A stretch of 32,000 nt of DNA from Prochlorococcus marinus subsp. pastoris str. CCMP1986 (GTDB taxonomy: Bacteria > Cyanobacteriota > Cyanobacteriia > PCC-6307 > Cyanobiaceae): positions 1,350,001 through 1,382,000 of the forward strand of contig NC_005072.1 of the NCBI RefSeq assembly GCF_000011465.1. The letters are read 5' to 3'. Position 1 is the stretch's first letter. Each line of letters starts with the position of its first letter. The position numbers and the translations under genes were made by a program. Positions 1-16,526 of the stretch are shown piece by piece. The notes below the pieces were generated by a model. It was not told the DNA's origin. It saw only the letters and a list, made by a program, of their open reading frames with translations, and did no database searches.

Positions 1-101
1 GGAATATGAGCAGTTATTGGAAAAGGATTTAAAAATCTGCATTAAAAAGTGCTTGCCAGTATCACTATTGGCAAACACTCATGACGATGTTTTTTGAAAA
101 T

Positions 102-212
102 CTAAACGAACATTTCTGTTGATGTAGTGATACTTAAAATTACAGAAATAAAGAAAATGTAAGGAACTACCTTAAAAGGAACATATCCTCGGCGTTTAGA
201 AATAAAGTCCAT
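102..212 (-). CDS. hypothetical 36-aa hydrophobic micro-protein directly abutting the hli stop codon
   Basis: Hand translation gives MDFISKRRGYVPFKVVPYIFFISVILSITTSTEMFV*. The ATG at 212 immediately follows the TAA of the hli ORF (TAAATG). It is below the 60-aa cutoff of the ORF track. Confidence 0.3.
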   Translation of the reverse strand: MDFISKRRGYVPFKVVPYIFFISVILSITTSTEMFV

Positions 213-368
213 TTAGACGAATCCAGGAATAATTTGACCTGTTGTTAAATAAGCACCAATAGCAGCTATGAAGCCAATCATGGCAAATCTGCCGTTGAGC
301 TTTTCTGCAACAACTTTTTCCTTCTCAACTGTTTTTGTTTCGAGAACTTTAACTTTTTTTGAGTTCAT
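213..368 (-). CDS. hli: high-light-inducible protein (HLIP, one-helix CAB-like protein)
   Basis: Hand translation gives 51 aa: MNSKKVKVLETKTVEKEKVVAEKLNGRFAMIGFIAAIGAYLTTGQIIPGFV*. The AEKLNGRxAMIGF...G helix motif is diagnostic of cyanobacterial HLIPs. Track ORF 268..483 (+) is its antisense shadow. Confidence 0.85.
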   Translation of the reverse strand: MNSKKVKVLETKTVEKEKVVAEKLNGRFAMIGFIAAIGAYLTTGQIIPGFV

Positions 369-540
369 AAGAAAAATAGATTGCTACGTAAACAAATATA
401 ACATTAATATTACTTTCTGTAAAGAAATAATGCTATTTATCTTGGATTTTAGATATCTTAACACAATCCTGGCACAGTTATGAGTCAAAATATAAATATC
501 CTTTATGTAGTTACCCTTTTAAAAAATTTCCCTTTCAGAA

Positions 541-580
541 GCGGACTAATCCTTCGTGGAGTTTATGGACCTTAGTCCGC
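541..580. other. GC-rich stem-loop (terminator or small-RNA candidate)
   Basis: Perfect 9-bp stem GCGGACTAA (541-549) / TTAGTCCGC (572-580) with a 22-nt loop. It lies in an otherwise AT-rich intergenic stretch between the 757..987 gene and hli. Confidence 0.5.
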
Positions 581-648
581 AATATATAAATAGCCTTTTA
601 TTTAATATCATAAGGTAAGGAAAGTTTAAAAATTTTTTAAGATAACGA

Positions 649-689
649 AACCTCCCTATTTTTGGGCAAGAAAATACCCTTGCGAGGTT
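649..689. other. nested stem-loop (terminator or small-RNA candidate)
   Basis: Outer stem AACCTC (649-654) / GAGGTT (684-689) with inner stem GCAAG / CTTGC. It lies about 70 nt downstream of the stop of the minus-strand ORF 757..987. Confidence 0.4.
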
Positions 690-756
690 AGATAATGGGG
701 ATGAACTGGATTTTTAAAAGGACTCGTTTATATCTTCTTTAATTTTTTTAAAGATC

Positions 757-987
757 TTAGTCGCAATACTTTCCAGAGCTAATAAATTCTGAATTTTGTG
801 AAGTAATTCTTTCTAAGTTTTTGTTTAAATTTTTAGTTTGATTAGAAGCTAAATAAAATCCAATGGTTAAAAAAACAAGTGCTATTGAAGTAACTATTGT
901 GCTTAACTGAAGAACCCCATCTGCCAAAATAGTTGGAGTTTTTGGAGATAAAATAGCTTTTCCCCCCTTCACTTTTGATTTTGCCAT
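757..987 (-). CDS. hypothetical small membrane protein (76 aa)
   Basis: Track ORF with an ATG start and one clear hydrophobic segment (LQLSTIVTSIALVFLTIGFYLA). No recognisable family. Confidence 0.6.
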   Translation of the reverse strand: MAKSKVKGGKAILSPKTPTILADGVLQLSTIVTSIALVFLTIGFYLASNQTKNLNKNLERITSQNSEFISSGKYCD

Positions 988-1143
988 AATCTTAATCTTT
1001 ACTTTTACTTAACTAATTGTTAACAATAGGTCGAAAATATTAATTTGTCAGCTAGTCACATTACCTATTTGGATGACTTAAGTATGATAAATACTCCTGG
1101 AACAATTACGAACAATTGGAGATAAGAGAAATAATCGTTTCAA

Positions 1144-1515
1144 TTAAAATTTAAGTTTTGTTTTTACTCTATTTTTATTTTCAGAATTAAATTTAAAAAG
1201 TCCCGAGTCAGTAAATATAGTCAATTCATCGCCATATGATTCCTGGATAGATAAACCTTCATCAGAATCTAAATTTTTAACAAATACATTTCCGACTAGT
1301 TTTAAAGTTCTCGCATCTTTGTCGTAAGTAAGCTTATTTGAGGAGGCTTCAAAATTATTCTTATTACTTTTGATAACTACATTTCCAATAGCTTCAAAAC
1401 TCCCTTTTACGTTTTGTATCTGAGAATCAGAGGTAACTGTATAATTCAGCTTCTCTTTTGCAAATGAAATTTCAGTTAAAAGTAATAGTAGCGGGGCAAA
1501 TAGTAAGCGTTTCAT
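1144..1515 (-). CDS. secreted protein with the shared MKRLL leader; weak OstA/LptA-like repeat pattern
   Basis: Starts with ATGAAACGCTTACT. Signal peptide is MKRLLFAPLLLLLTEISFA. The mature part has recurring GNVVI / GNVFV strands reminiscent of the OstA/LptA fold (weak, from memory). Confidence 0.8.
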   Translation of the reverse strand: MKRLLFAPLLLLLTEISFAKEKLNYTVTSDSQIQNVKGSFEAIGNVVIKSNKNNFEASSNKLTYDKDARTLKLVGNVFVKNLDSDEGLSIQESYGDELTIFTDSGLFKFNSENKNRVKTKLKF

Positions 1516-1803
1516 TTATGGATCAAGCTTCGTTGTTAGTTGGCAAAAAGTAGCATTATTATTTTTGAGACATTTATTGTATTTTGTCTGTAAAACTTTT
1601 TGTGCTTCTTTCTTTATGCAAAGATCCAAGTAATTTTTTGCAAATTGAGTCATCCCAATTTCGTTATATTCTGCATATTTCAAACCTGGTCTTTTGCATT
1701 GAGAGACTATTTGTTTGTAAGTAGGTTCTTTATGAAAAAGATTTGCTTTAACAGCAGTAGGTAAAGCGACAACAGCTAAAAGTGGGAGTAGTAAGCGTTT
1801 CAT
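1516..1803 (-). CDS. secreted Cys-containing small protein with the shared leader (95 aa)
   Basis: Starts with ATGAAACGCTTACT. Signal peptide is MKRLLLPLLAVVALPTAVKA. Its stop codon directly abuts the ATG of the next ORF. Confidence 0.8.
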   Translation of the reverse strand: MKRLLLPLLAVVALPTAVKANLFHKEPTYKQIVSQCKRPGLKYAEYNEIGMTQFAKNYLDLCIKKEAQKVLQTKYNKCLKNNNATFCQLTTKLDP

Positions 1804-2031
1804 TCAATCTTCTGCATCTTCAAATTCTCTTAGCAAACGAAAAGTTTTGGAAATAAAAGGAAAGATCCAAACAAACAAACCTACTACTGTTATCAAAGCG
1901 ACAAGAAAACCCAAAATTGCTAAGAATCCACCAGTTGCATCTCCTTCGTAAAAGCGATCAAGTCCAATTGGAGCACCAACTCCTAAAAGGAAGAGTCTTG
2001 TTAAAGTTTGTTTTTCTTTTTTTCTCAACAT
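1804..2031 (-). CDS. TM2-domain membrane protein (75 aa)
   Basis: The GAPIGLDRFYEGD motif followed by a second hydrophobic helix matches the TM2 domain pattern (G..G.h+FY.G). Its stop TGA abuts the next ATG. Confidence 0.75.
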   Translation of the reverse strand: MLRKKEKQTLTRLFLLGVGAPIGLDRFYEGDATGGFLAILGFLVALITVVGLFVWIFPFISKTFRLLREFEDAED

Positions 2032-2040
2032 AAATAATGT

Positions 2041-2086
2041 AAAAAGAGGGTTTTACCCCTCTAATATAGATTAACTGTCAATCAAT
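2041..2086 (-). repeat. diverged copy of the ATTGACAGTCGATCTAAAAT boundary element, plus hairpin and T-tract
   Basis: The minus strand reads ATTGATTGACAGTTAATCTATATT, then hairpin AGAGGGGTAAAACCCTCT, then TTTTT. It sits between the stop of 2091..2411 and the ATG at 2031. Confidence 0.7.
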
Positions 2087-2090
2087 TAAA

Positions 2091-2411
2091 TTATCCCATC
2101 GCTGCGACTTCATCAGCAAGTTGCTTATTTCTTAGAATAACTTCTTCATCATTAAAAACAGGAAGTACATTCCATTCCACTCCAAATTTTGCTCTCCAGA
2201 TACCAAAATGTTCAGCCATTTTGAGATGATTGTCAGCCTTGCAAGTCACAAAAACTTCTCCAGTTTGAGGAGCATGGACTCTACTTATCAATTCAAATCC
2301 ATCAAATTTATCCTTAGGTGCTCCAGAAGCAATATATTTTTCAAAGAGTTTGTAACCTTCTGATTGAGAAAGAGTATCTGGGATAATTCCATGAACGTGA
2401 TAGTAAGCCAT
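2091..2411 (-). CDS. small conserved protein, paralog of 5592..5930 (DUF3303-like, family name from memory)
   Basis: Track ORF 2091..2438 starts at TTG; the likely ATG is at 2411 (MAYYHVHG...). It aligns with 5592..5930: F.GF....R.HA......V...A......M.EHF..W..KF......PV..D.E. Confidence 0.8.
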   Translation of the reverse strand: MAYYHVHGIIPDTLSQSEGYKLFEKYIASGAPKDKFDGFELISRVHAPQTGEVFVTCKADNHLKMAEHFGIWRAKFGVEWNVLPVFNDEEVILRNKQLADEVAAMG

Positions 2412-2480
2412 AACTAAAATTGGATAGTGTAATTTCAATCTAAAAACGATAATTTAAAAAGAATTTAATTTATCTTTAAA

Positions 2481-2500
2481 TTTAGATCGACTGTCAATCG
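2481..2500 (-). repeat. boundary element core copy
   Basis: The minus strand reads CGATTGACAGTCGATCTAAA and contains the exact 16-mer TTGACAGTCGATCTAA. Confidence 0.85.
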
Positions 2501-2510
2501 TATTTAATTT

Positions 2511-2534
2511 AGCTGCAAGTAGTAAGCGTTTCAT
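2511..2534 (-). pseudogene. orphan signal-peptide leader (ATGAAACGCTTACTACTTGCAGCT) with no gene body
   Basis: A perfect 14-mer ATGAAACGCTTACT abuts the TAA of ORF 2535..3047. The reading frame runs straight into the boundary element and dies (MKRLLLAAKLNTIDSRSKF...). Confidence 0.6.
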
Positions 2535-3047
2535 TTAAAAATCATAAGTGACTTTATCGCATTTTTTCTTTCGATATATTTTCTGCATTTCTTTTTGTTC
2601 TGATAAATAATCTTCTTTTGCTTGTTTATTAATTGGATCATATTTGGCTTTAAATTCTTCTTTGATAGCTTGAGCATTTTGTCTTCTTTCTTCTGCCATG
2701 AAATCAAAATCACCATCACTATAATTTCCACTTTTTAAGGTAGTTTCAAACAAATAACATTCATTAGATAAAGCAATATCAAATTCTTTTAGTAAGAAAT
2801 ATTCAGTACAAAAGCTTGCTAATTTATAAGGACTATTATAAAAGTCTCTCCAATTTATATCTATTCCATAAACTTCAGCAATTTTTTCATTAGTAAATTC
2901 TTTGCTTTGTTTTACAAATAATATTTTTTGCTGATAATCATCTTTTGATTGATTTATTGCAAATTGAAGGTCTTTGCATAGTCTTACTTTATCGTTTCCA
3001 AAACCAACTATAAGTGGGAAAACAATAAATAAAACTAAGCGTTTCAT
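2535..3047 (-). CDS. secreted hypothetical protein (170 aa) with a leader variant
   Basis: Starts with ATGAAACGCTTAGT, one mismatch from the shared 14-mer. Signal peptide is MKRLVLFIVFPLIVGFG. Track ORF 2531..2731 is an out-of-frame shadow. Confidence 0.8.
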   Translation of the reverse strand: MKRLVLFIVFPLIVGFGNDKVRLCKDLQFAINQSKDDYQQKILFVKQSKEFTNEKIAEVYGIDINWRDFYNSPYKLASFCTEYFLLKEFDIALSNECYLFETTLKSGNYSDGDFDFMAEERRQNAQAIKEEFKAKYDPINKQAKEDYLSEQKEMQKIYRKKKCDKVTYDF

Positions 3048-3278
3048 TTAATCTTTGACTTTTTGGTCTAATAATTCTTTTAATTCCTTTGGGAAGTTTA
3101 AAAAAGAATCTTTTAAATTTTCATTCTTTTCTCCTATATGTAGTATCCACTCTCTAAATTCTTCTGCTATTGCATAACTGTCTTCATATTTTTCTAGGGT
3201 ATCCATAACAGAAATTCTGTTAGTAGCCCAACAAGTCGCAATATCAATCCTTTTTTTTTGTTTAGTATTTACTGCCAA
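3048..3278 (-). CDS. hypothetical small acidic protein (start uncertain)
   Basis: Track ORF with a TTG start that overlaps the end of the upstream micro-ORF by 10 nt. An internal ATG (MDTLEKYED...) is an alternative start. Confidence 0.55.
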   Translation of the reverse strand: MAVNTKQKKRIDIATCWATNRISVMDTLEKYEDSYAIAEEFREWILHIGEKNENLKDSFLNFPKELKELLDQKVKD

Positions 3279-3433
3279 AACTCATCTAATGCATCAAACA
3301 CTCTGTTGAGATAATCGTTTGCTCCTATACATTCCCATTTTCCCTTTTCACCAATCGCACATTTGTAGTGCAGTTCTCTCTTGAGCTGCATTAGTTTATT
3401 TGTCATCGCAACCTTGTCTAGTCTTCCGTTCAT
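3269..3433 (-). CDS. hypothetical 54-aa protein, not in the ORF track
   Basis: Hand translation gives MNGRLDKVAMTNKLMQLKRELHYKCAIGEKGKWECIGANDYLNRVFDALDEFWQ*. Its ATG overlaps the TGA of the upstream ORF (ATGA). Confidence 0.5.
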   Translation of the reverse strand: MNGRLDKVAMTNKLMQLKRELHYKCAIGEKGKWECIGANDYLNRVFDALDEFWQ

Positions 3434-3606
3434 AGTAAGTCTTCCGCTTCCGTCAATATTTGATTCTTTAAAAAAACAAGCGCGTCTAGTTTTTCTTCTT
3501 TTTCTTCATAATTTTCAAATTTCATTTCTGCAATTTCAACAATTGCTTTATTTATATTTTTAAGCCGTTTCTTAATAACTCTTTTTGGGGTTTTGGTTGA
3601 TTCCAT
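3430..3606 (-). CDS. hypothetical lysine-rich small protein
   Basis: Track ORF 3430..3663 starts at GTG; the first ATG is at 3606 (MESTKTPKRVIKK...). Its stop is coupled to the next ORF through an ATGA overlap. Confidence 0.5.
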   Translation of the reverse strand: MESTKTPKRVIKKRLKNINKAIVEIAEMKFENYEEKEEKLDALVFLKNQILTEAEDLL

Positions 3607-3731
3607 CGGAATTACTTTTTTCTTTATATTCGCTTTCTTTTCTTCAAAATGCGAGCCCCACACTTTAAATTCTGGTTAAATTTTCTACATAATGTCTTTA
3701 AGAATATAGTTTCTGCTCTTTTAATTTTAAT

Positions 3732-3764
3732 TTAATCAATAGATTTAAGTGGTGAGCTTTTCAT
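3732..3764 (-). pseudogene. degenerate orphan leader (ATGAAAAGCTCACCACTT...)
   Basis: Its ATG abuts the TAA of ORF 3765..3932, giving the same stop|ATGAAA architecture. It is only 10 codons long (MKSSPLKSID*). Confidence 0.35.
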
Positions 3765-3932
3765 TTAAAAGGTAATATTTTCTTCTTCAAGTTTTTTCTT
3801 TAGTTCTAGTGGCATATGAGCAATATCTTTTTTAATTGCATCTAAAGCATCATTATACTTTTCAGGATCAGATAAAAGCGTTTTTATCAAGTTATATTGA
3901 CTTTCTATTTCCTGAGAGGAAAATTTACTCAT
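3765..3932 (-). CDS. hypothetical 55-aa protein, not in the ORF track
   Basis: Hand translation gives MSKFSSQEIESQYNLIKTLLSDPEKYNDALDAIKKDIAHMPLELKKKLEEENITF*. It lies 25 nt downstream of a boundary-element copy. Confidence 0.5.
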   Translation of the reverse strand: MSKFSSQEIESQYNLIKTLLSDPEKYNDALDAIKKDIAHMPLELKKKLEEENITF

Positions 3933-3956
3933 TTTTAAAAACTTATTACTTTTTTT

Positions 3957-3978
3957 ATTTTAGATTGACTGTCAATTT
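3957..3978 (-). repeat. boundary element core copy
   Basis: The minus strand reads AAATTGACAGTCAATCTAAAAT, one mismatch from the consensus core. Confidence 0.8.
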
Positions 3979-4029
3979 AATCTGTCTTTAAATATCAACT
4001 CCTAAAATGAATTTAATTTTTAAATTAAT

Positions 4030-4287
4030 TTGGTTTACTTTAAGAAAGAGTTTATTAAATCCCTTAAATTAAAAGGCTCTATATTTTTAATTGTGGTAAT
4101 TATTGGATTTATTTACTCAAGTCCAAAATCAAGGGTAATTATTGCAAATTCTTTGACTTCTTCCGCTAAATTTTTAAACGAAACTGTAGAAACAACAAAT
4201 AAGGATATTTGGTTTTCTGAACCTGATTTCATTTTTAGTATTAGGTTAAAATTACGAGAATTATTGAGAGGAACTCAAAGAGGTTGA
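4030..4287 (+). CDS. doubtful ORF (85 aa, TTG start) with one TM segment
   Basis: It is the only long frame in this interval. It shows weak similarity (SPKSRVIIANSL..FL vs KPISRIYIADYL..FL) to 11905..12117. It runs against the local minus-strand gene direction, and its 3' end overlaps a minus-oriented boundary element. Confidence 0.3.
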   Translation: MVYFKKEFIKSLKLKGSIFLIVVIIGFIYSSPKSRVIIANSLTSSAKFLNETVETTNKDIWFSEPDFIFSIRLKLRELLRGTQRG

Positions 4288-4288
4288 G

Positions 4289-4328
4289 AAGGAGCTAATT
4301 ACCCCTTATTTTAGATCGACTGTCAATC
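4289..4328 (-). repeat. boundary element with hairpin
   Basis: The minus strand reads GATTGACAGTCGATCTAAAATAAGGGGTAATTAGCTCCTT. It starts 3 nt after the stop of micro-ORF 4331..4444. Confidence 0.85.
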
Positions 4329-4330
4329 TA

Positions 4331-4444
4331 TTAATAATTAATTAATTTTTTATTTTCATCTGTTTTATTTACTTTTAACCCAATAAACAATACCCATATA
4401 ACTGCAAAAACTATTGGCAAGAAAACGATAGCAAGCCTCATCAT
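4331..4444 (-). CDS. hypothetical 37-aa membrane micro-protein, not in the ORF track
   Basis: Hand translation gives MMRLAIVFLPIVFAVIWVLFIGLKVNKTDENKKLINY*, with a single hydrophobic helix. Confidence 0.4.
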   Translation of the reverse strand: MMRLAIVFLPIVFAVIWVLFIGLKVNKTDENKKLINY

Positions 4445-4550
4445 TTTTTAATCCTATTATTTGCTAAAAATAATACCGTTTAAATAAATAATTAAAACTA
4501 GGTACTTTACCTATTTCTGGATGACTTCCTATTAGGGAGAGAAGCAAAAA

Positions 4551-4610
4551 CCACCAATCACTTTCCTAAATAGGAACTTTGATGGATAGTAAATTTATAC
4601 CCAAAAAGTT
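4551..4610 (+). repeat. orphan 5' module (leader plus first codons) of the 16747..17064 gene family
   Basis: About 92% identical over ~60 nt to 7073..7134: CCACCAATCACTTTCCTAAATAGGAACTTTGATGGATAGTAAATTTATACCCAAAAAGTT. It includes the family start ATGGATA (4582). No gene body follows, and the cupin gene starts 70 nt later. Confidence 0.6.
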
Positions 4611-4681
4611 AAATTTAGTACTGACAAATATTTTAAAAATTAATAATATAAGCCTAAATAATTTTCTAGGAATTCAAATTG

Positions 4682-5110
4682 ATGATTAAAAATTTATTCA
4701 TAGCAATAGCCTTTGCTTTAATGCTCATTAACCCAAGTATTTCTATAGCTGCAGAATCTCCTGTAGATGTACAAGAAATCTTTGTAGGTTCTGAAACTAT
4801 GGATGGTGATTCTCTTAAATATCCAAAAGGAAAAGCAGAAATAAGATTACAAAGAGTCGAGTTAGCTGAGGGAGGGGTAGTCCCACTCCACTCTCATCCA
4901 ATTCCATTATTAGGTAATGTTGAGCAAGGTACGATTGTTGTCAAAAGACAAGGAATGGAAGATCTTACCTATACAGCAGGGGATACTTTTATAGTTGGTC
5001 CAAAGACACCAAAACATACAATGGGTAATGCAAAAACTGATAACGCAGTAGTTTGGTTCGCAGCAATAGGTGCAAAAGATGTTCCAATACTAATTCCCGC
5101 AGAAGGATAA
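4682..5110 (+). CDS. secreted cupin-domain protein
   Basis: Signal peptide is MIKNLFIAIAFALMLINPSISIAA. GGVVPLHSHP...G....GD matches the cupin_2 metal-binding motifs. The track ORF starts one codon earlier, at TTG 4679. Confidence 0.85.
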   Translation: MIKNLFIAIAFALMLINPSISIAAESPVDVQEIFVGSETMDGDSLKYPKGKAEIRLQRVELAEGGVVPLHSHPIPLLGNVEQGTIVVKRQGMEDLTYTAGDTFIVGPKTPKHTMGNAKTDNAVVWFAAIGAKDVPILIPAEG

Positions 5111-5133
5111 TTTCAACTTTAAATCAATTATTT

Positions 5134-5181
5134 TTGATTGATAGTCAAACTATAATGAGGAGCAATTAGCTCCTTTTTTTT
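5134..5181 (+). repeat. diverged boundary element with a perfect hairpin and T8 directly before an ATG
   Basis: Sequence is TTGATTGATAGTCAAACTATAATGA, then GGAGC-AATTA-GCTCC, then TTTTTTTT, then the ATG at 5182. Confidence 0.75.
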
Positions 5182-5490
5182 ATGACTGCTCAAAATTTTA
5201 TGAATGTTGTTCGATTTAAATTAAAGTCAGATTGTGTAGATAAGTATTTTGAAGTAATAGATAAAACAAGTTTTGAGGGGATGACTCAAAGATATATCGC
5301 TAAAACTGGAGTTTATGATTACTGTTTTGTTGGGATCTGGAAAAGTGTAGAAGCTATTGCAGCTCAAAGACCAGCTATGATTGCTCACCTTGATGAGGTT
5401 AGAGGATTTATGGAAGAGTTGTCTCCTGAACTTGGAGTTACTGATCCTGTTTCAGGAAATATTGTTTCTAAAGTTGGTTATCATGATTAA
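5182..5490 (+). CDS. hypothetical 102-aa protein, possibly ABM/Dabb-like ferredoxin fold
   Basis: Track ORF with an ATG start. The fold guess rests only on size and the pattern V.F.LK...........G...........W.S.EA. Confidence 0.75.
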   Translation: MTAQNFMNVVRFKLKSDCVDKYFEVIDKTSFEGMTQRYIAKTGVYDYCFVGIWKSVEAIAAQRPAMIAHLDEVRGFMEELSPELGVTDPVSGNIVSKVGYHD

Positions 5491-5506
5491 TAGTCGATTT
5501 TAAAAG
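5486..5506 (+). repeat. degenerate boundary element copy
   Basis: GATTAATAGTCGATTTTAAAAG compared with GATTGACAGTCGATCTAAAAT. It overlaps the stop codon of 5182..5490. Confidence 0.45.
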
Positions 5507-5591
5507 TTCCATAGTCCAAGTATTCAATTCAAGATCCTTAACTCAATTTTAAATAACATATCCTAGAAATAATTTTAGATTTATTAATTAA

Positions 5592-5930
5592 ATGAATACT
5601 TATTTTGTAACTGCAACTTTTAAAAATGTTGCTCTCATGGGTGCAGCTTATGACCTGTTTTTAAAGGTTATTGAAGACGGAACTTTGAATGATGAGTTTG
5701 AAGGATTTAAAGTTATGGGAAGATATCATGCCTCTTACTCAAATAATGTATATATTATTGTCCAAGCTTCAACAGGTATAAAAATGACAGAACACTTCGC
5801 TCCTTGGAAGGTCAAGTTTGATATAGATTTTGATATCAAGCCAGTTATGACTGACGATGAAAAAGTTGCTGAGCATAAGCTTGTTGGTTCATTAATGGCA
5901 GCAGAAAAGAAAATGGGATTTTCAGGGTAA
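5592..5930 (+). CDS. small conserved protein, paralog of 2091..2411 (DUF3303-like, family name from memory)
   Basis: Track ORF. It aligns along its whole length with the minus-strand ORF 2091..2411. Confidence 0.85.
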   Translation: MNTYFVTATFKNVALMGAAYDLFLKVIEDGTLNDEFEGFKVMGRYHASYSNNVYIIVQASTGIKMTEHFAPWKVKFDIDFDIKPVMTDDEKVAEHKLVGSLMAAEKKMGFSG

Positions 5931-6006
5931 TTATTTTTTAGAGATTTAGATTATGAATATATAATCCTATCTTGAAAGAGACTTGGGAAATAGCATGCAG
6001 AAAAGA

Positions 6007-6975
6007 ATGAAACGCTTACTACTTCCACTACTAGCTGCTCTCGCTATAAATTCTCAACCTGTTCTTACGAATGAAGATAGAGCTAACTTTTCAGAGGCTG
6101 AAATAATTAAAGTAAATAATAAAAATATAGAAGTAATTAAATTTAAAGTGCCTGATAAGAAGTTTCCAGATAGAAATGATGTTTTAGCTCAAATTCATTT
6201 TCCAAAATATTACAAGAATAAAAAATTATCCCTAATTATTCACCAACATGGAAGTAATAGAGATGGTTTAAGGTTCGAGAAATGGGGAGGTAGAACAGAC
6301 GAATGGGGGAGAAGGTTAGTAGAAAAAGCTTTAGAAAGAGGTTATGCGGTAGCTTTGCTTGATTCTTTTTATAAAAGAAAGTTAAAACCTTCAGATAAAG
6401 GAAAGTTTCCAAACGGTATTTTGATTAGTGAAAAACTTAACTCGATACTATCTAAGGATGAAAGATTTGATAAATCAAAAATTTTTTACTCTGGTTTTAG
6501 TTATGGTGCAAGTCAAGTATTGAAGCTTCAAGACAAAAGGGCAAACAGCGATTTATTTAAAGCAGCAGTGGCAGCAGAACCTGGATGTAACAAAGTTTCT
6601 TTTCCATTCAAATCTAATATAAAAACTTTAATAATTAAAGGTGAGGACAGCCATTATAACCCCATCGCATGCGAATATTATTATAATCTTGTTAAAGAAA
6701 CGGGAAATCAAATTGAATATGTATCTATACCGAAAGTAAATCATTTCTTCAGCTTAAACGGATCAATTGGAAAAGGAATAGCAGTTAATGGATGCTCAGA
6801 AAATATAGTAATACAATATCCAGATCGGACATTCAAACTTGCAGATGGAACATCAATCAATAAAGAAGAAGCTCAAAGAAGGTGTTTAACAAAGGAGTCG
6901 GGTGAAGGTACGACAAGAGAGAAATTGGATGAAGCAATAAATATATCGCTTAATTATTTTGATAAGTACAAATAA
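6007..6975 (+). CDS. secreted alpha/beta hydrolase (dienelactone-hydrolase/esterase-like) with the shared leader
   Basis: The ATGAAACGCTTACT start at 6007 gives MKRLLLPLLAALA; the track ORF begins earlier, at TTG 5983. It has a nucleophile elbow GFSYG (GxSxG) and an HQHGS oxyanion-type motif. Confidence 0.85.
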   Translation: MKRLLLPLLAALAINSQPVLTNEDRANFSEAEIIKVNNKNIEVIKFKVPDKKFPDRNDVLAQIHFPKYYKNKKLSLIIHQHGSNRDGLRFEKWGGRTDEWGRRLVEKALERGYAVALLDSFYKRKLKPSDKGKFPNGILISEKLNSILSKDERFDKSKIFYSGFSYGASQVLKLQDKRANSDLFKAAVAAEPGCNKVSFPFKSNIKTLIIKGEDSHYNPIACEYYYNLVKETGNQIEYVSIPKVNHFFSLNGSIGKGIAVNGCSENIVIQYPDRTFKLADGTSINKEEAQRRCLTKESGEGTTREKLDEAINISLNYFDKYK

Positions 6976-7065
6976 AAAGCTTGTTACTTGCCTATCTATT
7001 TTTGTTGTCACCTTTTTGACATGAATTTATTGATCCCATATCAATACAGAAAGGATCTAAATTAA

Positions 7066-7276
7066 CCCCATACCACCCATCACTTTCCTAAATAAGAACT
7101 TTGATGGATAATAAATTTATAACCGAAAAAGTTTGGATAACACTTCCTCCAAGCTTCAAAAATCACCAAGGTCCCCTAATATAACTGAAGAAAAGTTTTG
7201 GTTAATGAACCTTGAGAGAGACAAGCTTGAGAGGTAGGACGGAAGCGTTTGCTTCGGTAAATCAAAATATAAATAA
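7066..7276 (+). pseudogene. decayed paralog of 16747..17064, including its 5' module
   Basis: The leader CCCCATACCACCCATCAC plus ATGGATA (7104) matches 16686..16750. Positions 7208..7249 match 16852..16892 (AACCTT.AGAGAGACAAGCTTGAGAGGT...GGAAGCGTT) but carry an indel and in-frame TAA/TAG stops (..NHQGPLI*, ..WLMNLERDKLER*). Confidence 0.6.
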
Positions 7277-7390
7277 GCTCTAAATTAAATAATATTAATA
7301 GTACTTTAGAGCTAAAAATAGAATCTTTAATTAATAATATTACTATCAATCTAGGAACCTATAAATGCAAATAAGTTCTTAAGCTAATTG

Positions 7391-7424
7391 TTATATAGTA
7401 ATCTAGGTTATATAGTAATCTATA
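7391..7424. repeat. tandem direct repeat, 2 x 17 bp
   Basis: TTATATAGTAATCTA occurs perfectly at 7391-7405 and 7408-7422. Confidence 0.85.
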
Positions 7425-7445
7425 TAATATAAATAATTACTTTCT

Positions 7446-7514
7446 AAGAGTATAAATGTTTACACAGTAAGAGTATAAGTATTTAAATAGAAAGAGTATA
7501 AGTGTATACATAGA
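7446..7514. repeat. tandem direct repeat, 3 x 23 bp (iteron-like)
   Basis: The three units are contiguous: AAGAGTATAAATGTTTACACAGT, AAGAGTATAAGTATTTAAATAGA and AAGAGTATAAGTGTATACATAGA. Confidence 0.85.
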
Positions 7515-7643
7515 AATGGTTTATAGCTTTTTCATTTTATTTTTTTTAGTATATTAATAAAAAAAATCTATATGTCAATTTATTTTTTCAAAAATTTACT
7601 AACGTATCTTTATTTACTAATGCTAATCAAAATTTATAAATTA

Positions 7644-7681
7644 CTTAAATTTAATTTAACCCTAATACAAAATCCTTAATC
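7644..7681 (+). promoter_or_regulatory. possible Pho-box-like direct repeats (weak)
   Basis: CTTAAATT-taa-TTTAACCC-taa-TACAAAAT shows 8-mers at 11-bp phasing, followed by CCTTAATC. It resembles the cyanobacterial PhoB box PyTTAAPyPy(T/A) repeated every 11 bp. Only two units are good matches. Confidence 0.2.
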
Positions 7682-7702
7682 AGTGACAAGCAAATTGTCA
7701 CT
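7682..7702. promoter_or_regulatory. perfect inverted repeat AGTGACA-N7-TGTCACT upstream of the 694-aa gene
   Basis: Perfect 7-bp arms lie 33-53 nt upstream of the ATG at 7735. They are followed by a -10-like TATAGAAT sequence. Confidence 0.45.
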
Positions 7703-7734
7703 AGAACTAATTTATAGAATTTGCAAATTACAAA

Positions 7735-9819: not shown

Positions 9820-9862
9820 TTTTAAAACTAAATTAAGCAAATAAAAATTGCGACTTTATAAG

Positions 9863-9903
9863 ACCTATAAACTCATTAATTTAGTGAGTTTATAGGTTTT
9901 TTA
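9863..9903 (+). terminator. rho-independent terminator of the 694-aa gene
   Basis: 13-bp stem ACCTATAAACTCA (9863-9875) / TGAGTTTATAGGT (9885-9897), followed by a T-run. Confidence 0.85.
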
Positions 9904-10009
9904 TATTTCAAACCTAAGTTTTTATATCTTTGCAATCTCATAAATGGTTAATAAGCTGTTCGTATATGAGGATATGATTATTAGGAAAATAATCCAAGTA
10001 ACAGTCGAT

Positions 10010-10168
10010 TTACTGTAATGGATAATTTAAATAAGCATATTTGTACATTTTCCTATAATCATCATGCAATCTTTCAGTTGCTAACTTTCTATTTTCCATT
10101 CCATCTCTAATCAAATCCATTTCATGGAAGTTTTGATTTAGGATTGTGAAAGGAGTAATGAGTTTCAT
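10010..10168 (-). CDS. 52-aa micro-protein, family member A, not in the ORF track
   Basis: Hand translation gives MKLITPFTILNQNFHEMDLIRDGMENRKLATERLHDDYRKMYKYAYLNYPLQ*. A GGAGG lies 4 nt upstream of the ATG. The N-terminus is homologous to the 14193..14333 product (P[FY]TI[LI]...F....D[IL]..G). Confidence 0.5.
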   Translation of the reverse strand: MKLITPFTILNQNFHEMDLIRDGMENRKLATERLHDDYRKMYKYAYLNYPLQ

Positions 10169-10283
10169 AAAACCTCCTGTATCTACACCTTTATTGTCCT
10201 CCTATTGTTATTAAATTAATAGAGCGGTTTGAGGAACAATTAGGTACGGGAAGAGGACTAAATTTTCGACTAGATTGTTAAAT
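10169..10283 (-). promoter_or_regulatory. conserved leader of micro-protein family, copy A
   Basis: The core at 10225..10283 is about 85% identical to 14403..14461 over its first ~45 nt; the distal ~15 nt aligns only with a gap. The proximal AGGTGTAG..AGGAGG block is also shared. The transcribed (minus) strand is pyrimidine-rich (GTCCTCTTCCCGTAC..GTTCCTCAAACCG). Confidence 0.45.
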
Positions 10284-10430
10284 TGATTGGAGTAGTTTCT
10301 GACGCTTCTACTGCTTTCTTTCATTTTGCTATTTTTCTCTATTGCCATGTTCCTTAATGTTGTTAGTTTGTGACATAAGGTAATCCAGAAACAATTAGTT
10401 TGTTTGATGAATAAGCCTGGAATTAATTTC

Positions 10431-10814: not shown

Positions 10815-11025
10815 AGATTCTGCACCCTAGAAATCTTATCCCCATAGCCAAAAAGCTCTTCGAATATATGGTTTTAGCTGCCAACCCCAGAATCCATATC
10901 CAAAGACAAGGAATTGAGGGAAAAAACGAATTAACAGTAAAATAATTCCTCCTCTACCTCTCGCTTTCGTTGAAATCCTTGCTGCATCACTTGAATCAAA
11001 GTTTTATACAGTAGATACAGATTTG

Positions 11026-11424
11026 ATGACAGATGAAACAAAAATAAGATTTTATATTGAGAGTGAAACCCAAGTCCAAGACTCAATAGGAGGAAGAGAT
11101 ACGATTAATCTTTGGGTTAGATGTAACAATAGTTATCCACAAATCTTTTTTACAACTCCTACCTATAACGCTGACAATACTAGAGTTGGTGTTAGATGGG
11201 ATAAAGATAAAGCATCTTTCTACAACTGGAATAAGTCAACAGATAGCCAAGCTTTTTTTCATCCAAGACCTAAAGAATTTGCTCAAAAACTGAAAGAAAA
11301 AAGTTTTTTAACAGTTCAGTGGAGCCCATACAGCAGTTCAAGTCGTACGGCAAAGTTTGATTTAAATTCTCAAGAATTTAGAGAAGATATTTCAAAAGCC
11401 ATAGCAGATGGGTGTAATTTTTAA
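11026..11424 (+). CDS. hypothetical protein (132 aa)
   Basis: Track ORF with the ATG at 11026. Its TAA directly abuts an orphan ATGAAACGCTTACT leader. Confidence 0.7.
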   Translation: MTDETKIRFYIESETQVQDSIGGRDTINLWVRCNNSYPQIFFTTPTYNADNTRVGVRWDKDKASFYNWNKSTDSQAFFHPRPKEFAQKLKEKSFLTVQWSPYSSSSRTAKFDLNSQEFREDISKAIADGCNF

Positions 11425-11466
11425 ATGAAACGCTTACTACTTGCACCGCTAATAGTTAGTAATTGA
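11425..11466 (+). pseudogene. orphan signal-peptide leader (13 codons) running into a boundary element
   Basis: ATGAAACGCTTACTACTTGCACCGCTAATAGTTAGTAATTGA encodes MKRLLLAPLIVSN*. The stop lies inside the ATTGACAG core. Confidence 0.6.
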
Positions 11467-11503
11467 CAGTCGATCTAAAATAAGGGGCAATTAGCTTCTT
11501 TTT
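11461..11503 (+). repeat. boundary element with hairpin and T-tract directly before an ATG
   Basis: Sequence is AATTGACAGTCGATCTAAAATAA, then GGGGC-AATTA-GCTTC, then TTTTT, then the ATG at 11504. Confidence 0.85.
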
Positions 11504-11908
11504 ATGGAAAAATTTTCCCAGAATCTTCTTAGGCTTTCTCTTTCAATATTATTTTTAAGTTTTCCTATTGGTTTTTTATTCGCAGGGATTGAATATATAA
11601 ACACCAAAAAGTTTTTAACAACAAAATATGATGAATTAAATGAAAAGACAGAAGACTATATAGAGGATATGGAAGAAACTTATCCTGAAACTATAAAATA
11701 TTTTCCTTCAACTAAATTGGCAGATAAATCTCCTCTTGCAACATTACTTTTAACAAAATCAACTATGAAATTATTTCAAGTTTCCGAATATCTAAAATAT
11801 AAAAATTCAATTTTGGATACTACTGACGAGATATCAAAGACTGTTGATGCTTTTATAGAAGAATTAAGAATTGAATATCCCGAATTAAATAGAATACTTC
11901 CTAGATGA
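11504..11908 (+). CDS. hypothetical membrane-anchored protein (134 aa)
   Basis: Track ORF with an N-terminal hydrophobic segment. Its TGA overlaps the next ATG (ATGA). Confidence 0.7.
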   Translation: MEKFSQNLLRLSLSILFLSFPIGFLFAGIEYINTKKFLTTKYDELNEKTEDYIEDMEETYPETIKYFPSTKLADKSPLATLLLTKSTMKLFQVSEYLKYKNSILDTTDEISKTVDAFIEELRIEYPELNRILPR

Positions 11909-12117
11909 AACGCTTACTCTTAGCTGAGCTTTTGTTAGTTTTAATTACTCTAATTTTTGTTTCTCTAAAACCAATTTCTAGAATTTATATTGCTGATTAT
12001 TTGGAAAAGATATCCTTATTTTTATTTAGAACAGTAAGCGATGAAGATTTAAATAAGTGGTATGAGAAAAGAGATAAGTATGAATTACTTGAGGAATCAG
12101 GAGGAACTGCTTACTAA
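11905..12117 (+). CDS. small protein with the shared leader used as a TM anchor (70 aa)
   Basis: Starts with ATGAAACGCTTACT (MKRLLLAELLLVLITLIFV). Its stop TAA lies inside the next boundary element. Confidence 0.7.
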   Translation: MKRLLLAELLLVLITLIFVSLKPISRIYIADYLEKISLFLFRTVSDEDLNKWYEKRDKYELLEESGGTAY

Positions 12118-12136
12118 TTGACAGTCGATCTAAAAT
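12116..12136 (+). repeat. boundary element core copy
   Basis: AATTGACAGTCGATCTAAAAT is identical to 11461..11481. Confidence 0.85.
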
Positions 12137-12258
12137 ATTGGCAAATGGCGATTAAATATTAAGAAAATGCCAACTAGAGAAAAACTTGAAGGAAAACAAA
12201 TTAATAAACGGCTGCTTAAGCATTGCCTATGCATAGTTGTCGGTACTTTAGGTTAAAG

Positions 12259-12849: not shown

Positions 12850-12871
12850 TATTTCAAATTTAGTATGTGTA

Positions 12872-13390: not shown

Positions 13391-13450
13391 CTCAGTAAGG
13401 GATTCCAATTTTAAAACTATTTATAAGATAATTGAAATTTTATTTGATTG

Positions 13451-13903: not shown

Positions 13904-13907
13904 TTTT

Positions 13908-14150: not shown

Positions 14151-14192
14151 TATTTATACTCTTTATTTTAATCTAAATAGCATAGCAATATT

Positions 14193-14583: not shown

Positions 14584-14604
14584 GATTGACAGTGGATCTA
14601 AAAT
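14584..14604 (+). repeat. boundary element core copy
   Basis: GATTGACAGTGGATCTAAAAT has one mismatch from the consensus. Confidence 0.8.
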
Positions 14605-14789
14605 ATTTAAAAACAAATTCATTATCTTGTGTGAAAAATTATCTAATATCAGGTTTGGTTGATGACTACAGAATAAAGATAAATCTTTTCGCTATTTCTC
14701 CTAATCATGCAATAAAAGTGTTTCAGCAGAAGTATCCAGAAGCAACCGATATTTATGTGATACAAGATCTATTTAAAGGGAATAAATGA
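14586..14789 (+). CDS. doubtful ORF (67 aa); the annotated TTG start is the TTGACA of the repeat
   Basis: The frame is open from inside the boundary element, so the true start, if any, is downstream. No family recognised. Confidence 0.3.
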   Translation: MTVDLKYLKTNSLSCVKNYLISGLVDDYRIKINLFAISPNHAIKVFQQKYPEATDIYVIQDLFKGNK

Positions 14790-15185: not shown

Positions 15186-16526
15186 TTGAGAAGGTTTCTA
15201 CTCCCATTACTAGCTGCTCTCGCTCTACCTACTACTGTTAATGCAGCTAAAATTAACTGTAATTCTCCTGTTTGGAAAAATAAACCGCAATGCAAAAATG
15301 AATCTGTAAGAAAAAAGGTAAAAACAATACTTGATGAAGAAACAGGTTTAATGGTTATAGAAATGGAAGCAGATATACCTTGGAGATCGACATCTAATCC
15401 AAAAATTCCTTATAAAAATATAGTTAAGCTTACGTCGAGCTTTGACGGAAGTTCGGAATATGTTGTTTTTGATAGAGACTACATAAGAGGTGCATTTAGT
15501 AGATTTACTGTTTTAACTAAATGGAGTTCAGATTATTTAAGTGCAACATATTTTTTAGAAAATGATTGTTCCTATGTTTTTAATACATGTTTTGGTGGTA
15601 TTTCTGATTCTGGTGAATTAGATTCTCCAATTGAATTAAAATTCAATAACCGAAATTACACATTATATGGAGAGGATGGTCAATTCTCATTACCCAATGA
15701 TTTTATTGAACAAGTAAAAAATACAAGATCATATACCGGGCTCTCGGTAAGAGGTAACAATAGAATTATTCCTATCGGAGAAGTTACTGTTGAGAAATTA
15801 TCTGAGTTGTATAAAAAAGTTTTAAAAAAATGGACAATACCAGAAATTAACTTCAAAGCTAAAAATATAAAATTAAAACCATCAATTAAAGAGATAGCAG
15901 GAAATACACTTCCAAAAGTTGTGACTGTAAGGTCAAGCAGAGGTCAAGGTACGGGCTTTTTTATAAATGATGAGGGTTTACTAATTACAAATAGACATGT
16001 AATTGGCGCTGGAAAAAAAATTGATATCCAAATAGAAACTGCTACTGGATCAGAATTAACTGCGAAAACCATTTATGTAAGTAGAAAAGATGACTTTGCA
16101 ATTCTTAAGGTTCAAGGGGAGATTTTTCCCGAGGCTCTTCCAATTTGTTATGCAACCTATCCTACTGCTGGAGAAGAAGTAATAGCTATTGGTTCACCGA
16201 GGGGATTAACAAATACAATTACTAGAGGAATTGTAAGTGCATTTAGGAGATCAGGAAATTATTCAGAGGGTTTTGCTACAACTGGCACCTCATTAATACA
16301 AACTGATGCTGCAATAAATCCAGGTAATAGTGGTGGTCCTTTATTAAATGAGAATGGAGAAGTTATTGGTATAAATACTTTCGGAGCAACCTCATCTGGT
16401 GGGTCTCAAGGTTTAAATTTTGCTGTTTCAATGATTGATGTACTTCAGCAATTAAATGTTAGAAAACCTGATCTAAAAAATATAAATGAATCATCTATAA
16501 ATGAATGTGGAAATATTAAATTGTGA
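15186..16526 (+). CDS. secreted trypsin-like serine protease (S1C/DegP-type catalytic domain, no PDZ) with a novel ~240-aa N-terminal domain
   Basis: TTG start. The leader MRRFLLPLLAALALPTTVNA shares CTAGCTGCTCTCGCT with the 6007 leader. The catalytic triad contexts are ITNRHV, DFAILKV and TDAAINPGNSGGPLLN. Confidence 0.9.
   Translation: MRRFLLPLLAALALPTTVNAAKINCNSPVWKNKPQCKNESVRKKVKTILDEETGLMVIEMEADIPWRSTSNPKIPYKNIVKLTSSFDGSSEYVVFDRDYIRGAFSRFTVLTKWSSDYLSATYFLENDCSYVFNTCFGGISDSGELDSPIELKFNNRNYTLYGEDGQFSLPNDFIEQVKNTRSYTGLSVRGNNRIIPIGEVTVEKLSELYKKVLKKWTIPEINFKAKNIKLKPSIKEIAGNTLPKVVTVRSSRGQGTGFFINDEGLLITNRHVIGAGKKIDIQIETATGSELTAKTIYVSRKDDFAILKVQGEIFPEALPICYATYPTAGEEVIAIGSPRGLTNTITRGIVSAFRRSGNYSEGFATTGTSLIQTDAAINPGNSGGPLLNENGEVIGINTFGATSSGGSQGLNFAVSMIDVLQQLNVRKPDLKNINESSINECGNIKL

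Follow-up and report, generated by a model that had tools for sequence, protein, structure and literature searches.

A 32,000-nt window of the Prochlorococcus marinus MED4 genome, the whole stretch of DNA analysed here, carries a short leader (L) at the start of unrelated genes, and we lean toward the view that L is a portable start-plus-signal-peptide module that also provides a homology seam for cassette shuffling, by a mechanism that we infer. L is a gene start of 14-17 bases encoding MKRLL, with the same nucleotides in each copy, including a very rare Arg codon. The 14-mer ATGAAACGCTTACT occurs in the window as six exact copies and one with a single mismatch (Table 1), all at the positions reported by a first-pass annotation made from the letters alone; with up to two mismatches 0.26 copies per window are expected by chance, and seven copies were reached in 0 of 100 shuffles. 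The genome as a whole (1.66 Mb) contains nine exact copies, seven of them between 1345981 and 1361918, within 16 kb of genomic island 5. All nine lie in flexible, mosaic regions and none is at a core gene, as the first-pass annotation would have it. Two degenerate relatives that it had listed are real: the copy at 3751 has three mismatches, and the leader at 15186 begins with the codons TTG AGA AGG TTT, the remainder of its 60 nt being 83-85% identical to other copies.

Table 1. Leader (L) copies, promoter modules with a predicted terminator (P) and composites of the two (LP) in the window. The core is the 14-mer for L and the 19-mer for P; block ends are ends of homology blocks shared with other genomes; TSS, published transcription start sites. 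All positions are window positions.
Feature	Position	Strand	Core	Gene and junction	Block ends	TSS
L	1502..1515	-	1502-1515	starts 123-aa LptA/LptC-like ORF 1144-1515 (PMM1406); abuts TAA of preceding ORF	1518, recurs in other genomes	
L with full 60-nt class-A signal-peptide coding region MKRLLLPLLAVVALPTAVKA	1744..1803	-	1790-1803	starts 95-aa Cys-containing ORF 1516-1803 (PMM1407); abuts TGA	1804	
P	2037..2083	-	2081-2063	hairpin, T-run; upstream of ORF 1804-2031	2053	2055
LP composite	2455..2537	-	L 2521-2534; P 2497-2479	stump 2534-2509 abuts TAA of 170-aa ORF; linker; P	2481-2487, 2524	
L, one mismatch	3034..3047	-	3034-3047	starts 170-aa ORF 2535-3047; abuts TAA		
Degenerate L stump, 10 codons	3751..3764	-		abuts TAA of 55-aa ORF 3765-3932	3736-3740 and 3763, recur in >10 genomes	
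P	3931..3977	-	3975-3957	upstream of 55-aa ORF 3765-3932		none in published tables searched
P	4282..4328	-	4326-4308 (exact)		4328-4331	
P	5136..5182	+	5138-5156 (variant)	hairpin, T-run; upstream of ORF 5182-5490 (PMM1413)	many, 5131-5187	5165, all four data sets
L, first 39 nt of class-A haplotype	6007..6045	+	6007-6020	starts 322-aa alpha/beta-hydrolase-like ORF (PMM1415); does not abut a stop	6006 (G103), 6041-6045 (G016, G045, G088)	
LP composite	11422..11503	+	L 11425-11438; P 11463-11481	TAA, 26-nt stump, 12-nt linker, P, hairpin, T-run; ATG of next ORF at 11504	11480, 11496, 11503	
L	11905..11918	+	11905-11918	starts 70-aa membrane-anchored peptide ORF 11905-12117; ATGA overlaps stop of ORF 11504-11908	11918	
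P	12116..12162	+	12118-12136 (exact)	right after stop of 70-aa ORF	12117	
P	14584..14630	+	14586-14604 (one mismatch)		14583-14619	
Diverged class-A leader	15186..15245	+		starts 446-aa HtrA/Do-type serine protease ORF		15 nt upstream of ORF

The length shared among L copies is 14-17 nt in all, 26 nt in one class and 60 nt in another. Their 5' limit falls precisely on the ATG or on the stop/ATG junction, and a stop triplet stands immediately 5' of the ATG in 31 of 57 L copies as compared to 11.7% of ordinary ORF starts. Five such abutments (at 1515, 1803, 2534, 3047 and 11425) and the ATGA overlap at 11905 had been described correctly. The accompanying statement that every copy is an ORF start fails for those at 2534 and 11425, whose frames close after 26 and 13 codons; neither starts a protein, and both are 26-nt stumps rather than true gene starts. 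Only 1.6% of the Arg codons in 963 long ORFs are CGC, and the codon set AAA CGC TTA CTN, which has a per-site chance of 0.0025, is used at 9 of the 14 genome sites that encode MKRLL (P for at least 9 of 14, ∼7e-21). The nucleotide identity of the copies is therefore due to descent and not to convergence, as the first-pass annotation had argued from the same rare codon.

The proteins that follow L are unrelated to each other. BLAST separates 25 of them into 17 mature families, and when 80 marine metagenome contigs are added to the genomes, 71 proteins fall into 42, a lower bound, so that the earlier claim of unrelated mature proteins behind one leader now extends to at least 42 families. The cargo ranges from 49 to 446 aa, with unrelated folds, and includes LptA-like proteins, an alpha/beta-hydrolase, an HtrA protease, an SNase and many small Cys proteins, for most of which NCBIfam gave no family name. 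Paralogues of PMM1406 at genome positions 357890 and 1080133 carry the same leader. Leaders are also swapped or absent among homologues: of two SNases that are 62% identical, one has L and the MED4 one a different signal peptide, and the MED4 ORF 11023-11424 is without the leader carried by its homologues in G016 and G122 (G numbers denote compared genomes). Within the genus, 21 of 24 genomes have the exact 14-mer, in many cases as tandem arrays on one strand, and the same 17-mer heads the same type of signal peptide, again in tandem, in other genera of the family; L thus occurs genus-wide and in low-light sister genera. Phage reference genomes gave no blastn match to a 66-nt leader. A scan of IMG/VR for the 17-mer returned 17 contigs, near the chance level, the only notable ones being a Prochlorococcus-like contig and a cyanomyovirus gene family. 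The string 'MKRLLL' was absent from the literature searched, and neither the MED4 ncRNA survey nor the tycheposon study of Prochlorococcus islands mentions L or P (10.1101/2020.12.28.424599).

Comparison with about 120 genomes showed that the island is a mosaic of 1-3-gene cassettes whose ends fall repeatedly in L and P. Of 64 distinct homology-block ends, 21 lie in L or P, as compared to 3.1 expected for elements that occupy 4.9% of the sequence, a statistic drawn from related genomes and motif-chosen samples with element intervals set after seeing the data; 6 of 9 L copies are hit, and strain breakpoints thus coincide with the motif as first proposed. A good many of the block ends map to junctions that contain neither L nor P, which makes the island mosaic at each gene boundary. 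L and P are the only sequences common to otherwise unrelated neighbours. Among 102 L copies, 16 pairs have both flanks in common, 61 the upstream flank only and 29 the downstream flank only. The flank that follows PMM1414 precedes the hydrolase gene in MED4, the 95-aa gene in G016 and, in G088 and G045 alike, an unrelated gene of 311 aa, and each of these three genes is also found behind another flank; the 95-aa gene (PMM1407) sits behind other upstream flanks in G016 and G044. In G054, where MED4 has a single L between a 134-aa ORF and the 70-aa gene, a 578-bp cassette lies between two L copies (134-aa ORF, L with a 189-aa gene, L with the 70-aa gene). The switch point is within the first 17 nt of L in one case and at +34 to +39 in another. 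Upstream and downstream flanks thus reassort at L, the mature parts are unrelated and the crossover positions vary. The earlier proposal of a recombination or gene-conversion joint is supported, and checks of all three conditions that it had named as refuting did not go against it; L is not the sole joint, and since leader haplotypes track the gene family and not the genome, within-genome conversion is not evident.

The second recurrent element, P, consists of an operator-like palindrome TTGACAGTCGATC followed by a −10 box, a hairpin and a T-run. Published TSSs at genome positions 1355165, 1352055, 358183, 359627 and 359991 lie 7-9 nt past the −10 box of five P copies, which have the TANNNT box and the start 6-9 nt downstream that define a −10-type promoter. 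At these five copies P acts as a promoter. The published tables list no TSS for the P copies at 1361490, 1354299, 1353948, 358562, 347652, 816259, 656681, 123192, 681227 and 1364612. The hairpin, which has two stem types followed by the T-run among 66 unique copies, has a minimum free energy of −6.0 as compared to −2.3 for shuffled sequences, and we describe P as a compact terminator-promoter unit whose terminator part is predicted. The palindrome points to an island-wide regulon; no DNA-binding domain was found by Pfam in ten small island ORFs examined for a regulator.

Genes behind L are co-transcribed with the genes upstream of them. The published dRNA-seq tables list no TSS adjoining L copies, in answer to a check for internal starts that the first-pass annotation had raised, and predict an operon PMM1406-1409; the HtrA/Do-type protease ORF has its own TSS. 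Genes behind L appear to be transcribed from an upstream promoter and translated by what would be translational coupling. Among RNA data, the region is covered only by Logan contigs of four runs from a single metatranscriptome study, and these break at the repeats and yield no starts, strands or levels. All coding L copies encode MKR followed by a Leu/Ala/Pro-rich stretch, which reads as the n-region and h-region of a putative Sec-type signal peptide. Class-A leaders end in VNA, VKA, VEA, ASA or INA as read from the sequence, the products of the copies at 6007, 3047 and 11905 have no clear cleavage site and one L copy has a lipobox. The leader probably exports the proteins that it heads.

In the mechanism that we favor, L would combine a start codon on or overlapping the preceding stop with the N-terminal part of a Sec-type signal peptide (MKRLLL...), and recombination would have placed this same DNA before many unrelated island genes. 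L and P would then act as seams for the homology-guided insertion, deletion and re-pairing of 1-3-gene cassettes, both within a genome and with DNA from other cells. Because transcription comes from upstream and translation appears coupled, a gene would be expressed and exported as soon as it was joined on. Recombination at L would be homology-dependent, by RecA or through short homology, and would need no dedicated enzyme. The homology common to the two L copies that flank the G054 indel is about 14 nt, which is short for RecA-dependent exchange. Three further observations sit uneasily with a homology reading: the stump class pattern, the constraint on codons 2-5, both described below, and the block ends outside L and P.

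One alternative, which we regard as unlikely, is that the first 14-17 nt of L are kept for a role at the RNA level, and that the breakpoints are a by-product of its position at a gene start in a mosaic island, where block ends fall at most gene boundaries and not at L alone. Such a role could be re-initiation at the stop/start junction in a setting of weak Shine-Dalgarno usage, the pacing of early elongation for export, or a protein- or RNA-binding site. The TGA built into ATGA and the frequent stop abutment fit coupling, and the 17-mer is kept across genera whose other synonymous sites differ. Only 1 of 40 codon instances deviates in codons 2-5 of L, as compared to 24 of 70 in codons 6-12, and synonymous sites after codon 5 vary 3-4 times more than those before it. 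Together with the family-tracking haplotypes, which show no sign of ongoing homogenisation, this low variability suggests that more than shared descent constrains the first 17 nt. The codons are thus close to frozen in the sense of the first-pass annotation, although genus-wide the claim is too strong: about one third of 124 leaders have a change in the L core, and these variants include non-synonymous changes, a point against an RNA-level role. Such a role also leaves unexplained the presence of identical nucleotides at the start of 42 unrelated genes, for which recombination is still needed, and non-coding stumps retain the sequence. An antisense or small RNA target, also suggested in the first pass, found no support in the genome match search: outside the known copies there is no trans match of 11 nt or more beyond chance in-gene matches and a further stump at genome position 1347415. 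The window contains no Rfam match at the gathering score and no tRNA.

The stumps bear on a second alternative. Those at 2534 and 11425 are each part of an ∼85-nt repeat that joins a leader stump to a promoter module, and non-coding stumps account for 65 of 139 L copies, about half. They are enriched in the 26-nt class (35 of 63 stumps as compared to 6 of 73 genes), occur in more than 20 unrelated contexts (27 upstream, 21 downstream), are always at operon tails and often lie at a fixed 35-39 nt from the P operator. A distinct class in so many contexts is not predicted by the passive decay of deleted genes, and the lengths of L ORFs are bimodal, either <30 aa or ≥45 aa. It is conceivable, though quite improbable, that L, and especially the 26-nt stump, is the core site of a dedicated site-specific system in which cassettes excise and integrate at L and are added to the operon tail, the stump being a docking site with no cassette in it. 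Such a system would resemble an integron dedicated to secreted proteins, with a recombinase that is yet to be recognised or has its gene elsewhere. The sharp 5' boundary, the fact that the 14-mer is the only sequence common to the two sides of the cassette indel, and the co-oriented, head-to-tail arrays without spacers would fit such a system. Against it, Pfam searches of all long window ORFs, and of the whole genome for PF00589 and PF00239, found no integrase or resolvase gene either inside the island or close to it, the only genome-wide matches being a weak tyrosine recombinase (PF00589) at 495 kb, far from the islands, and a serine recombinase at 1457 kb. Moreover, the alignments show no inverted repeat in L, crossover points within L differ between events, cassettes also end at P and at plain junctions, and core point changes are as frequent genus-wide as noted above. 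Were L and the 26-nt stump nonetheless the recognition sites of an undescribed cassette-capture system, for which we see only a slim chance, it would function as an integron with a start codon and export signal as its repeat: genes that encode secreted proteins and lack promoters would dock in frame on the stop at an operon tail, just upstream of P, and be exchanged across the Prochlorococcus collective, possibly with cyanophages. We give practically no credence to a chance resemblance or to selection converging on a good signal peptide, since MKR followed by leucines is a common signal-peptide opening but the codon statistics and the shuffles given above, together with reversed-pattern controls (0 matches), reject both.

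In the wild, Prochlorococcus populations are made up of numerous subpopulations distinguished by small island cassettes, and most cells are without the usual gene-mobility machinery. Tycheposons explain large insertions at tRNA genes, not gene-by-gene shuffling. With L proposed to supply a start codon, translational coupling and export, and P a predicted terminator-promoter with an invariant palindrome, the occurrence of both at cassette seams would offer a concrete and testable route for shuffling at this fine scale. L also defines a large, rapidly exchanged secretome, given the number of families in so small a sample, and the two elements could serve as ready-made expression and secretion parts for an organism that is hard to engineer.

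Several known systems resemble L in part. In cone-snail toxins and in the prochlorosins (ProcA) of Prochlorococcus, the leader is conserved and the product hypervariable; as with L, conservation of the N-terminal leader, silent sites included, far exceeds that of the mature part. These are, however, single families that diverge in the mature region, and the folds behind L are unrelated. The OspE/OspF/Elp lipoprotein genes on the cp32 plasmids of Borrelia burgdorferi have a common upstream homology box and leader peptide, attributed to recombination. There too a near-identical leader coding sequence precedes unrelated mature proteins and the loci are mosaic between strains, but the common block includes the promoter region and is carried on plasmid prophages, whereas for L the identity starts right at the ATG, behind the stop of the previous gene, on a chromosomal island of a free-living phototroph. 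Mycoplasma systems of the vsa/vsp type switch surface proteins by means of a recombination site inside the 5' coding region. They share with L a joint in the signal-peptide or 5' coding region and one start with alternative mature parts; they differ in that expression is from a single site, the silent copies are truncated at the 5' end, a site-specific recombinase is encoded next to them and the inversions are reversible within one cell. L genes, by contrast, each carry their own start codon, have no recombinase gene nearby and vary from genome to genome. In replacement islands and in the 'minimal mobile elements' of Neisseria, homologous recombination exchanges flexible genes that lie between conserved flanks. 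Such swaps, through conserved sequence on both sides, have been described with whole core genes as the flanks (10.1101/2020.12.28.424599). For L and P, the flanks would instead be linkers of 14-85 nt inside the island. The arrays of L genes are also like those of integrons, being packed, co-oriented and promoterless single-gene cassettes with a short recurrent element, read from an upstream promoter, and the cassette content of the island varies between strains. Unlike an integron, the island has no IntI or attI and no imperfect inverted repeat of the attC type; P does have a palindrome and a hairpin, but these are parts of a promoter whose starts are mapped. In addition, crossover positions vary, and the recurrent element of the L arrays is itself coding, a start codon together with a signal peptide.

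The gene start L (14-17 nt: ATG and MKRLL codons, with CGC for Arg), which heads secreted-protein genes of the islands, occurs in the window as six exact copies of the 14-mer ATGAAACGCTTACT and one copy with a single mismatch, where 0.26 copies with up to two mismatches are expected. The copies lie where the first-pass annotation had placed them, and stop codons abut their ATGs as it described. There are nine exact copies in the MED4 genome, a single contig of 1,657,990 bp with 30.8% G+C in which the window takes up bases 1350001-1382000; seven are clustered in 16 kb of island 5, with one more in island 1 and one in another mosaic region at 1.08 Mb. The window region is genomic island 5 of the MED4 ncRNA study (PMC2518516), whose Yfr RNA coordinates agree with this genome, and core genome (groESL, atpBE, iPGM and others) extends from ~19 kb rightward in the window. 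CGC makes up 1.6% of Arg codons, and AAA CGC TTA CTN is used at 9 of the 14 genome sites encoding MKRLL (per-site expectation 0.25%). Because this rare codon set recurs so often, the nucleotide identity among L copies is by descent and not by convergence, as had been argued from the sequence. The accompanying claim that every copy is an ORF start fails at two positions, where the reading frames end at 26 and 13 codons and the copies therefore do not start proteins.

Exact matches to the 14-mer occur in 21 of the 24 genus genomes, often as same-strand tandem arrays, with five copies within 2.5 kb in G016. In sister genera, genes for small secreted proteins have an identical 17-mer and a similar type of signal peptide; they too stand in tandem and abut stops. 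We assessed leader conservation by two pattern searches in which the codons of the leader were left open. The first, with full degeneracy for MK(R/S)LLLPLLAALA, found ten sites in 200 genomes of the family, in four genera and all in small genomes. ATGAAACGCTTACTACT opens nine of these, and the remaining one departs from it at the CGC codon alone (CGA). Silent positions of codons 6-12 vary freely; deviating codon instances number 1/40 in codons 2-5 versus 24/70 in codons 6-12 (Fisher 8e-5, overstated because the genomes are related). With codons 2-5 completely free, a second pattern recovered 124 leaders in 98 of 285 genomes, about two-thirds with the consensus 12 nt (hand tally) and about one-third with single or double changes, silent as well as replacing. 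Conservation at the start of L is thus strong, though short of complete.

Mature parts behind L are unrelated to one another, as first noted: 25 proteins fall into 17 BLASTP-unrelated families, and 71 L proteins into 42 when 80 marine metagenome contigs (31% G+C) are added. Recognisable cargo includes LptA/LptC-like, alpha/beta-hydrolase-like, HtrA-type protease and staphylococcal-nuclease-like proteins. Nine IMG/VR viral contigs (39-43% G+C) start a gene for a 165-172-aa secreted protein with the same 17-mer, and this protein has 'hypothetical' homologues in the T4-like Synechococcus cyanophages S-T4, S-H9-1 and S-SSM7; the match could be chance or a leader shared by phages.

No TSS adjoins any L copy in the published MED4 tables, which do contain starts at the linker P (below) or other upstream promoters, and the same authors' operon table joins PMM1406-1409 (PMC5607370). 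Together these support co-transcription of L genes with upstream genes. A stop triplet lies immediately 5' of the ATG in 31 of 57 L copies, versus 11.7% of ordinary ORF starts, and in 23 of the 31 it ends an open frame of 40 codons or more; ATGA in L gives a stop in a second frame. We infer translational coupling at L and export by the L leader.

A BLAST search of the genome with two window stumps (L copies whose frame closes soon after the start) identified both as members of a ~85-nt dispersed repeat. Its 3' part is a far more conserved motif, TTGACAGTCGATCTAAAAT, named P, with ~20 genome copies, mainly in islands 1 and 5. Among the genus genomes 23 of 24 contain P; all 16 genomes from other families lack it. 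The layout of 66 unique copies is highly stereotyped: an invariant TTGACAGTCGATC within the near-palindrome GATTGACAGTCGATC, a TANNNT box directly downstream, a hairpin that comes in two sequence types (MFE -6.0 versus -2.3 in shuffles), a T-run and, 41-46 nt from the motif start, an ATG. MED4 dRNA-seq places a TSS 7-9 nt past the box at five copies (PMC5607370, supplementary tables 8-11), and P is thus a promoter. Since the TSS sits inside the hairpin, hairpin and T-run could form only in transcripts from upstream. The layout suggests a putative combined terminator-promoter unit, in which GATTGACAGTCGATC looks like a candidate operator of some regulator. The published ncRNA Yfr11 has its 3' end 17 nt before one copy, so P can follow a separate terminator rather than replace one.

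Coordinates of features in and around the window (TSSs at P from PMC5607370)
Feature	Location	Strand	Remark
Cassette arm	window 1-4444	-	
Cassette arm	window 4579-12117	+	
DUF3303 paralogue	window 2091-2438	-	
DUF3303 paralogue	window 5592-5930	+	
P 19-mer	window 2063-2081		
P 19-mer	window 2479-2497		
P 19-mer	window 3957-3975		
P 19-mer	window 4308-4326		
P 19-mer	window 5138-5156		
P 19-mer	window 11463-11481		
P 19-mer	window 12118-12136		
P 19-mer	window 14586-14604		
P copies outside the window	genome 347-360 kb		island 1
TSS at P	genome 1355165		window
TSS at P	genome 1352055		window
TSS at P	genome 358183		island 1
TSS at P	genome 359627		island 1
TSS at P	genome 359991		island 1
Locus of Yfr11 with P downstream	genome 358571-358754	-	
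L copy, short frame	window 2534		26 codons
L copy, short frame	window 11425		13 codons
Stump	genome 1345981		4.0 kb left of window
Stump	genome 1347415		2.6 kb left of window
PMM1416 ORF	window 7735-9819		
Region lacking in G103	window 6979-9842		
Orphan-listed TSS	genome 1360185 (window 10185)	-	
52-aa ORF	window 10010-10168	-	
Nuclease-like protein, MED4	window 10404-10814		other signal peptide
Nuclease-like protein, metagenome	L095:1191-1583		L leader
TTG-start ORF	window 11023-11424		region 10991-11424
ORF before the G054 cassette site	window 11504-11908		
17-mer in viral contigs	L058, L060, L062, L063, L066, L067, L069, L070, L073		

The two cassette arms of the window are divergent; in G054, another genome of the comparison, homologues of both arms' cassettes are all co-oriented with junctions at P copies, and an inversion between P modules is suggested behind the divergent arms. 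Two DUF3303 paralogues lie on opposite arms, each adjoining L or P linkers. PMM1416 (694 aa, 40-42% G+C versus ~30% in its surroundings) gave no match in Pfam and NCBIfam searches and has homologues of 95-96% identity in G136 and G007; it is missing in G103 between the hydrolase gene and position 9843, a ~2.9-kb insertion or deletion. An unannotated 52-aa ORF, for which Pfam gave no match, begins 17 nt after the region's strongest TSS in N-deprived cells (21127 reads, orphan-listed).

The frames of complete L copies (139) end within 30 codons in 65 cases and between 30 and 44 codons in none. A distinct class with the 26-nt consensus ATGAAACGCTTACTACTTGCACCGCT makes up 35/63 stumps versus 6/73 genes. 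Stumps abut the stop of an operon's last gene; their upstream contexts are of 27 different kinds and their downstream contexts of 21. After about two-thirds of stumps of the 26-nt class, the candidate operator of P lies 35-39 nt from the ATG, and two variants of the stump-to-P linker give 10- or 13-codon frames. The L-P composite is a portable inter-operon linker in its own right, and simple decay of deleted genes does not explain the good preservation of stumps. Stumps may serve L-to-L exchange as docking sites or be its remnants, may belong to the upstream part of the promoter, or may hitch-hike with P. Left of the window lie two extra stumps, an exact one whose P is decayed and one in which TTG replaces ATG.

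Compared with 120 genomes of the genus, window 1-16600 shows homology in blocks of 1-3 genes spread across different contigs. Inside L or P elements (4.9% of the sequence) fall 21 of 64 distinct block ends (3.1 expected), a contrast whose P value is indicative only, the intervals having been set after the data were seen and the genomes being related. Block ends occur at 6/9 L and 7/8 P copies and also, in numbers, at junctions with neither element. Three direct examples are stronger than this count. In G054, the homologue of a MED4 ORF is followed by the same ATGA overlap, L and a 189-aa gene, then TGA, a second L and the homologue of the 70-aa ORF; MED4 lacks the 189-aa gene and has a single L here. 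What the L copies on either side of that gene have in common is the 14-mer alone, with one difference. The flank downstream of PMM1414 leads to the hydrolase in MED4 and to a 95-aa gene in G016; in G088 and G045 it leads to a 311-aa protein that has no relation to the hydrolase (E 0.4). Each of these genes also lies behind another flank in some other genome. One haplotype switch inside L falls in its first 17 nt, another at +34 to +39. Finally, among 102 L copies, 16 pairs have both flanks in common, 61 the upstream flank only, and 29 are alike only beyond the signal peptide.

Leader exchange also affects single mature proteins. A staphylococcal-nuclease-like protein has the L leader in a metagenome contig and another signal peptide in MED4, with mature parts 62% identical. 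A second MED4 ORF has a TTG start and no signal peptide; its G016 and G122 homologues (161 aa) have the L leader, and homology starts ~52 nt past their ATG, at the signal-peptide/mature junction.

Neither island contains or adjoins a gene for an integrase or resolvase; inverted repeats are absent from L, and the crossover position varies between events. On these grounds we favour homology-guided recombination at the linkers as the basis of cassette exchange. Genome-wide, one weak tyrosine-recombinase match and one serine-recombinase match are both far from the islands. Recombination would be guided by identity at L (14-60 nt), P (~45 nt) or L-P (~85 nt), and selection would retain in-frame, exportable fusions. 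The very short identity in the clearest indel, the 26-nt stump as a discrete unit and the extra constraint on the first five codons may point instead to one of two alternatives, a dedicated site-specific system acting at L or an RNA-level function of its first 17 nt. An antisense partner for L, as the first-pass annotation had suggested, was looked for and not found.

The literature on Prochlorococcus islands and ncRNAs, as far as searched, does not describe L and P, which are of clear interest for how small island cassettes are assembled and exchanged. The lipoprotein genes of Borrelia cp32 work alike with a shared leader, but L genes have no shared upstream box. Mycoplasma surface-protein loci recombine at 5'-end sites as L would, whereas L has neither an adjacent recombinase nor a single expression site. 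The packing of L arrays resembles that of integrons, but without an adjacent recombinase or attC. In what defines each of these three systems, the L arrangement stands apart.
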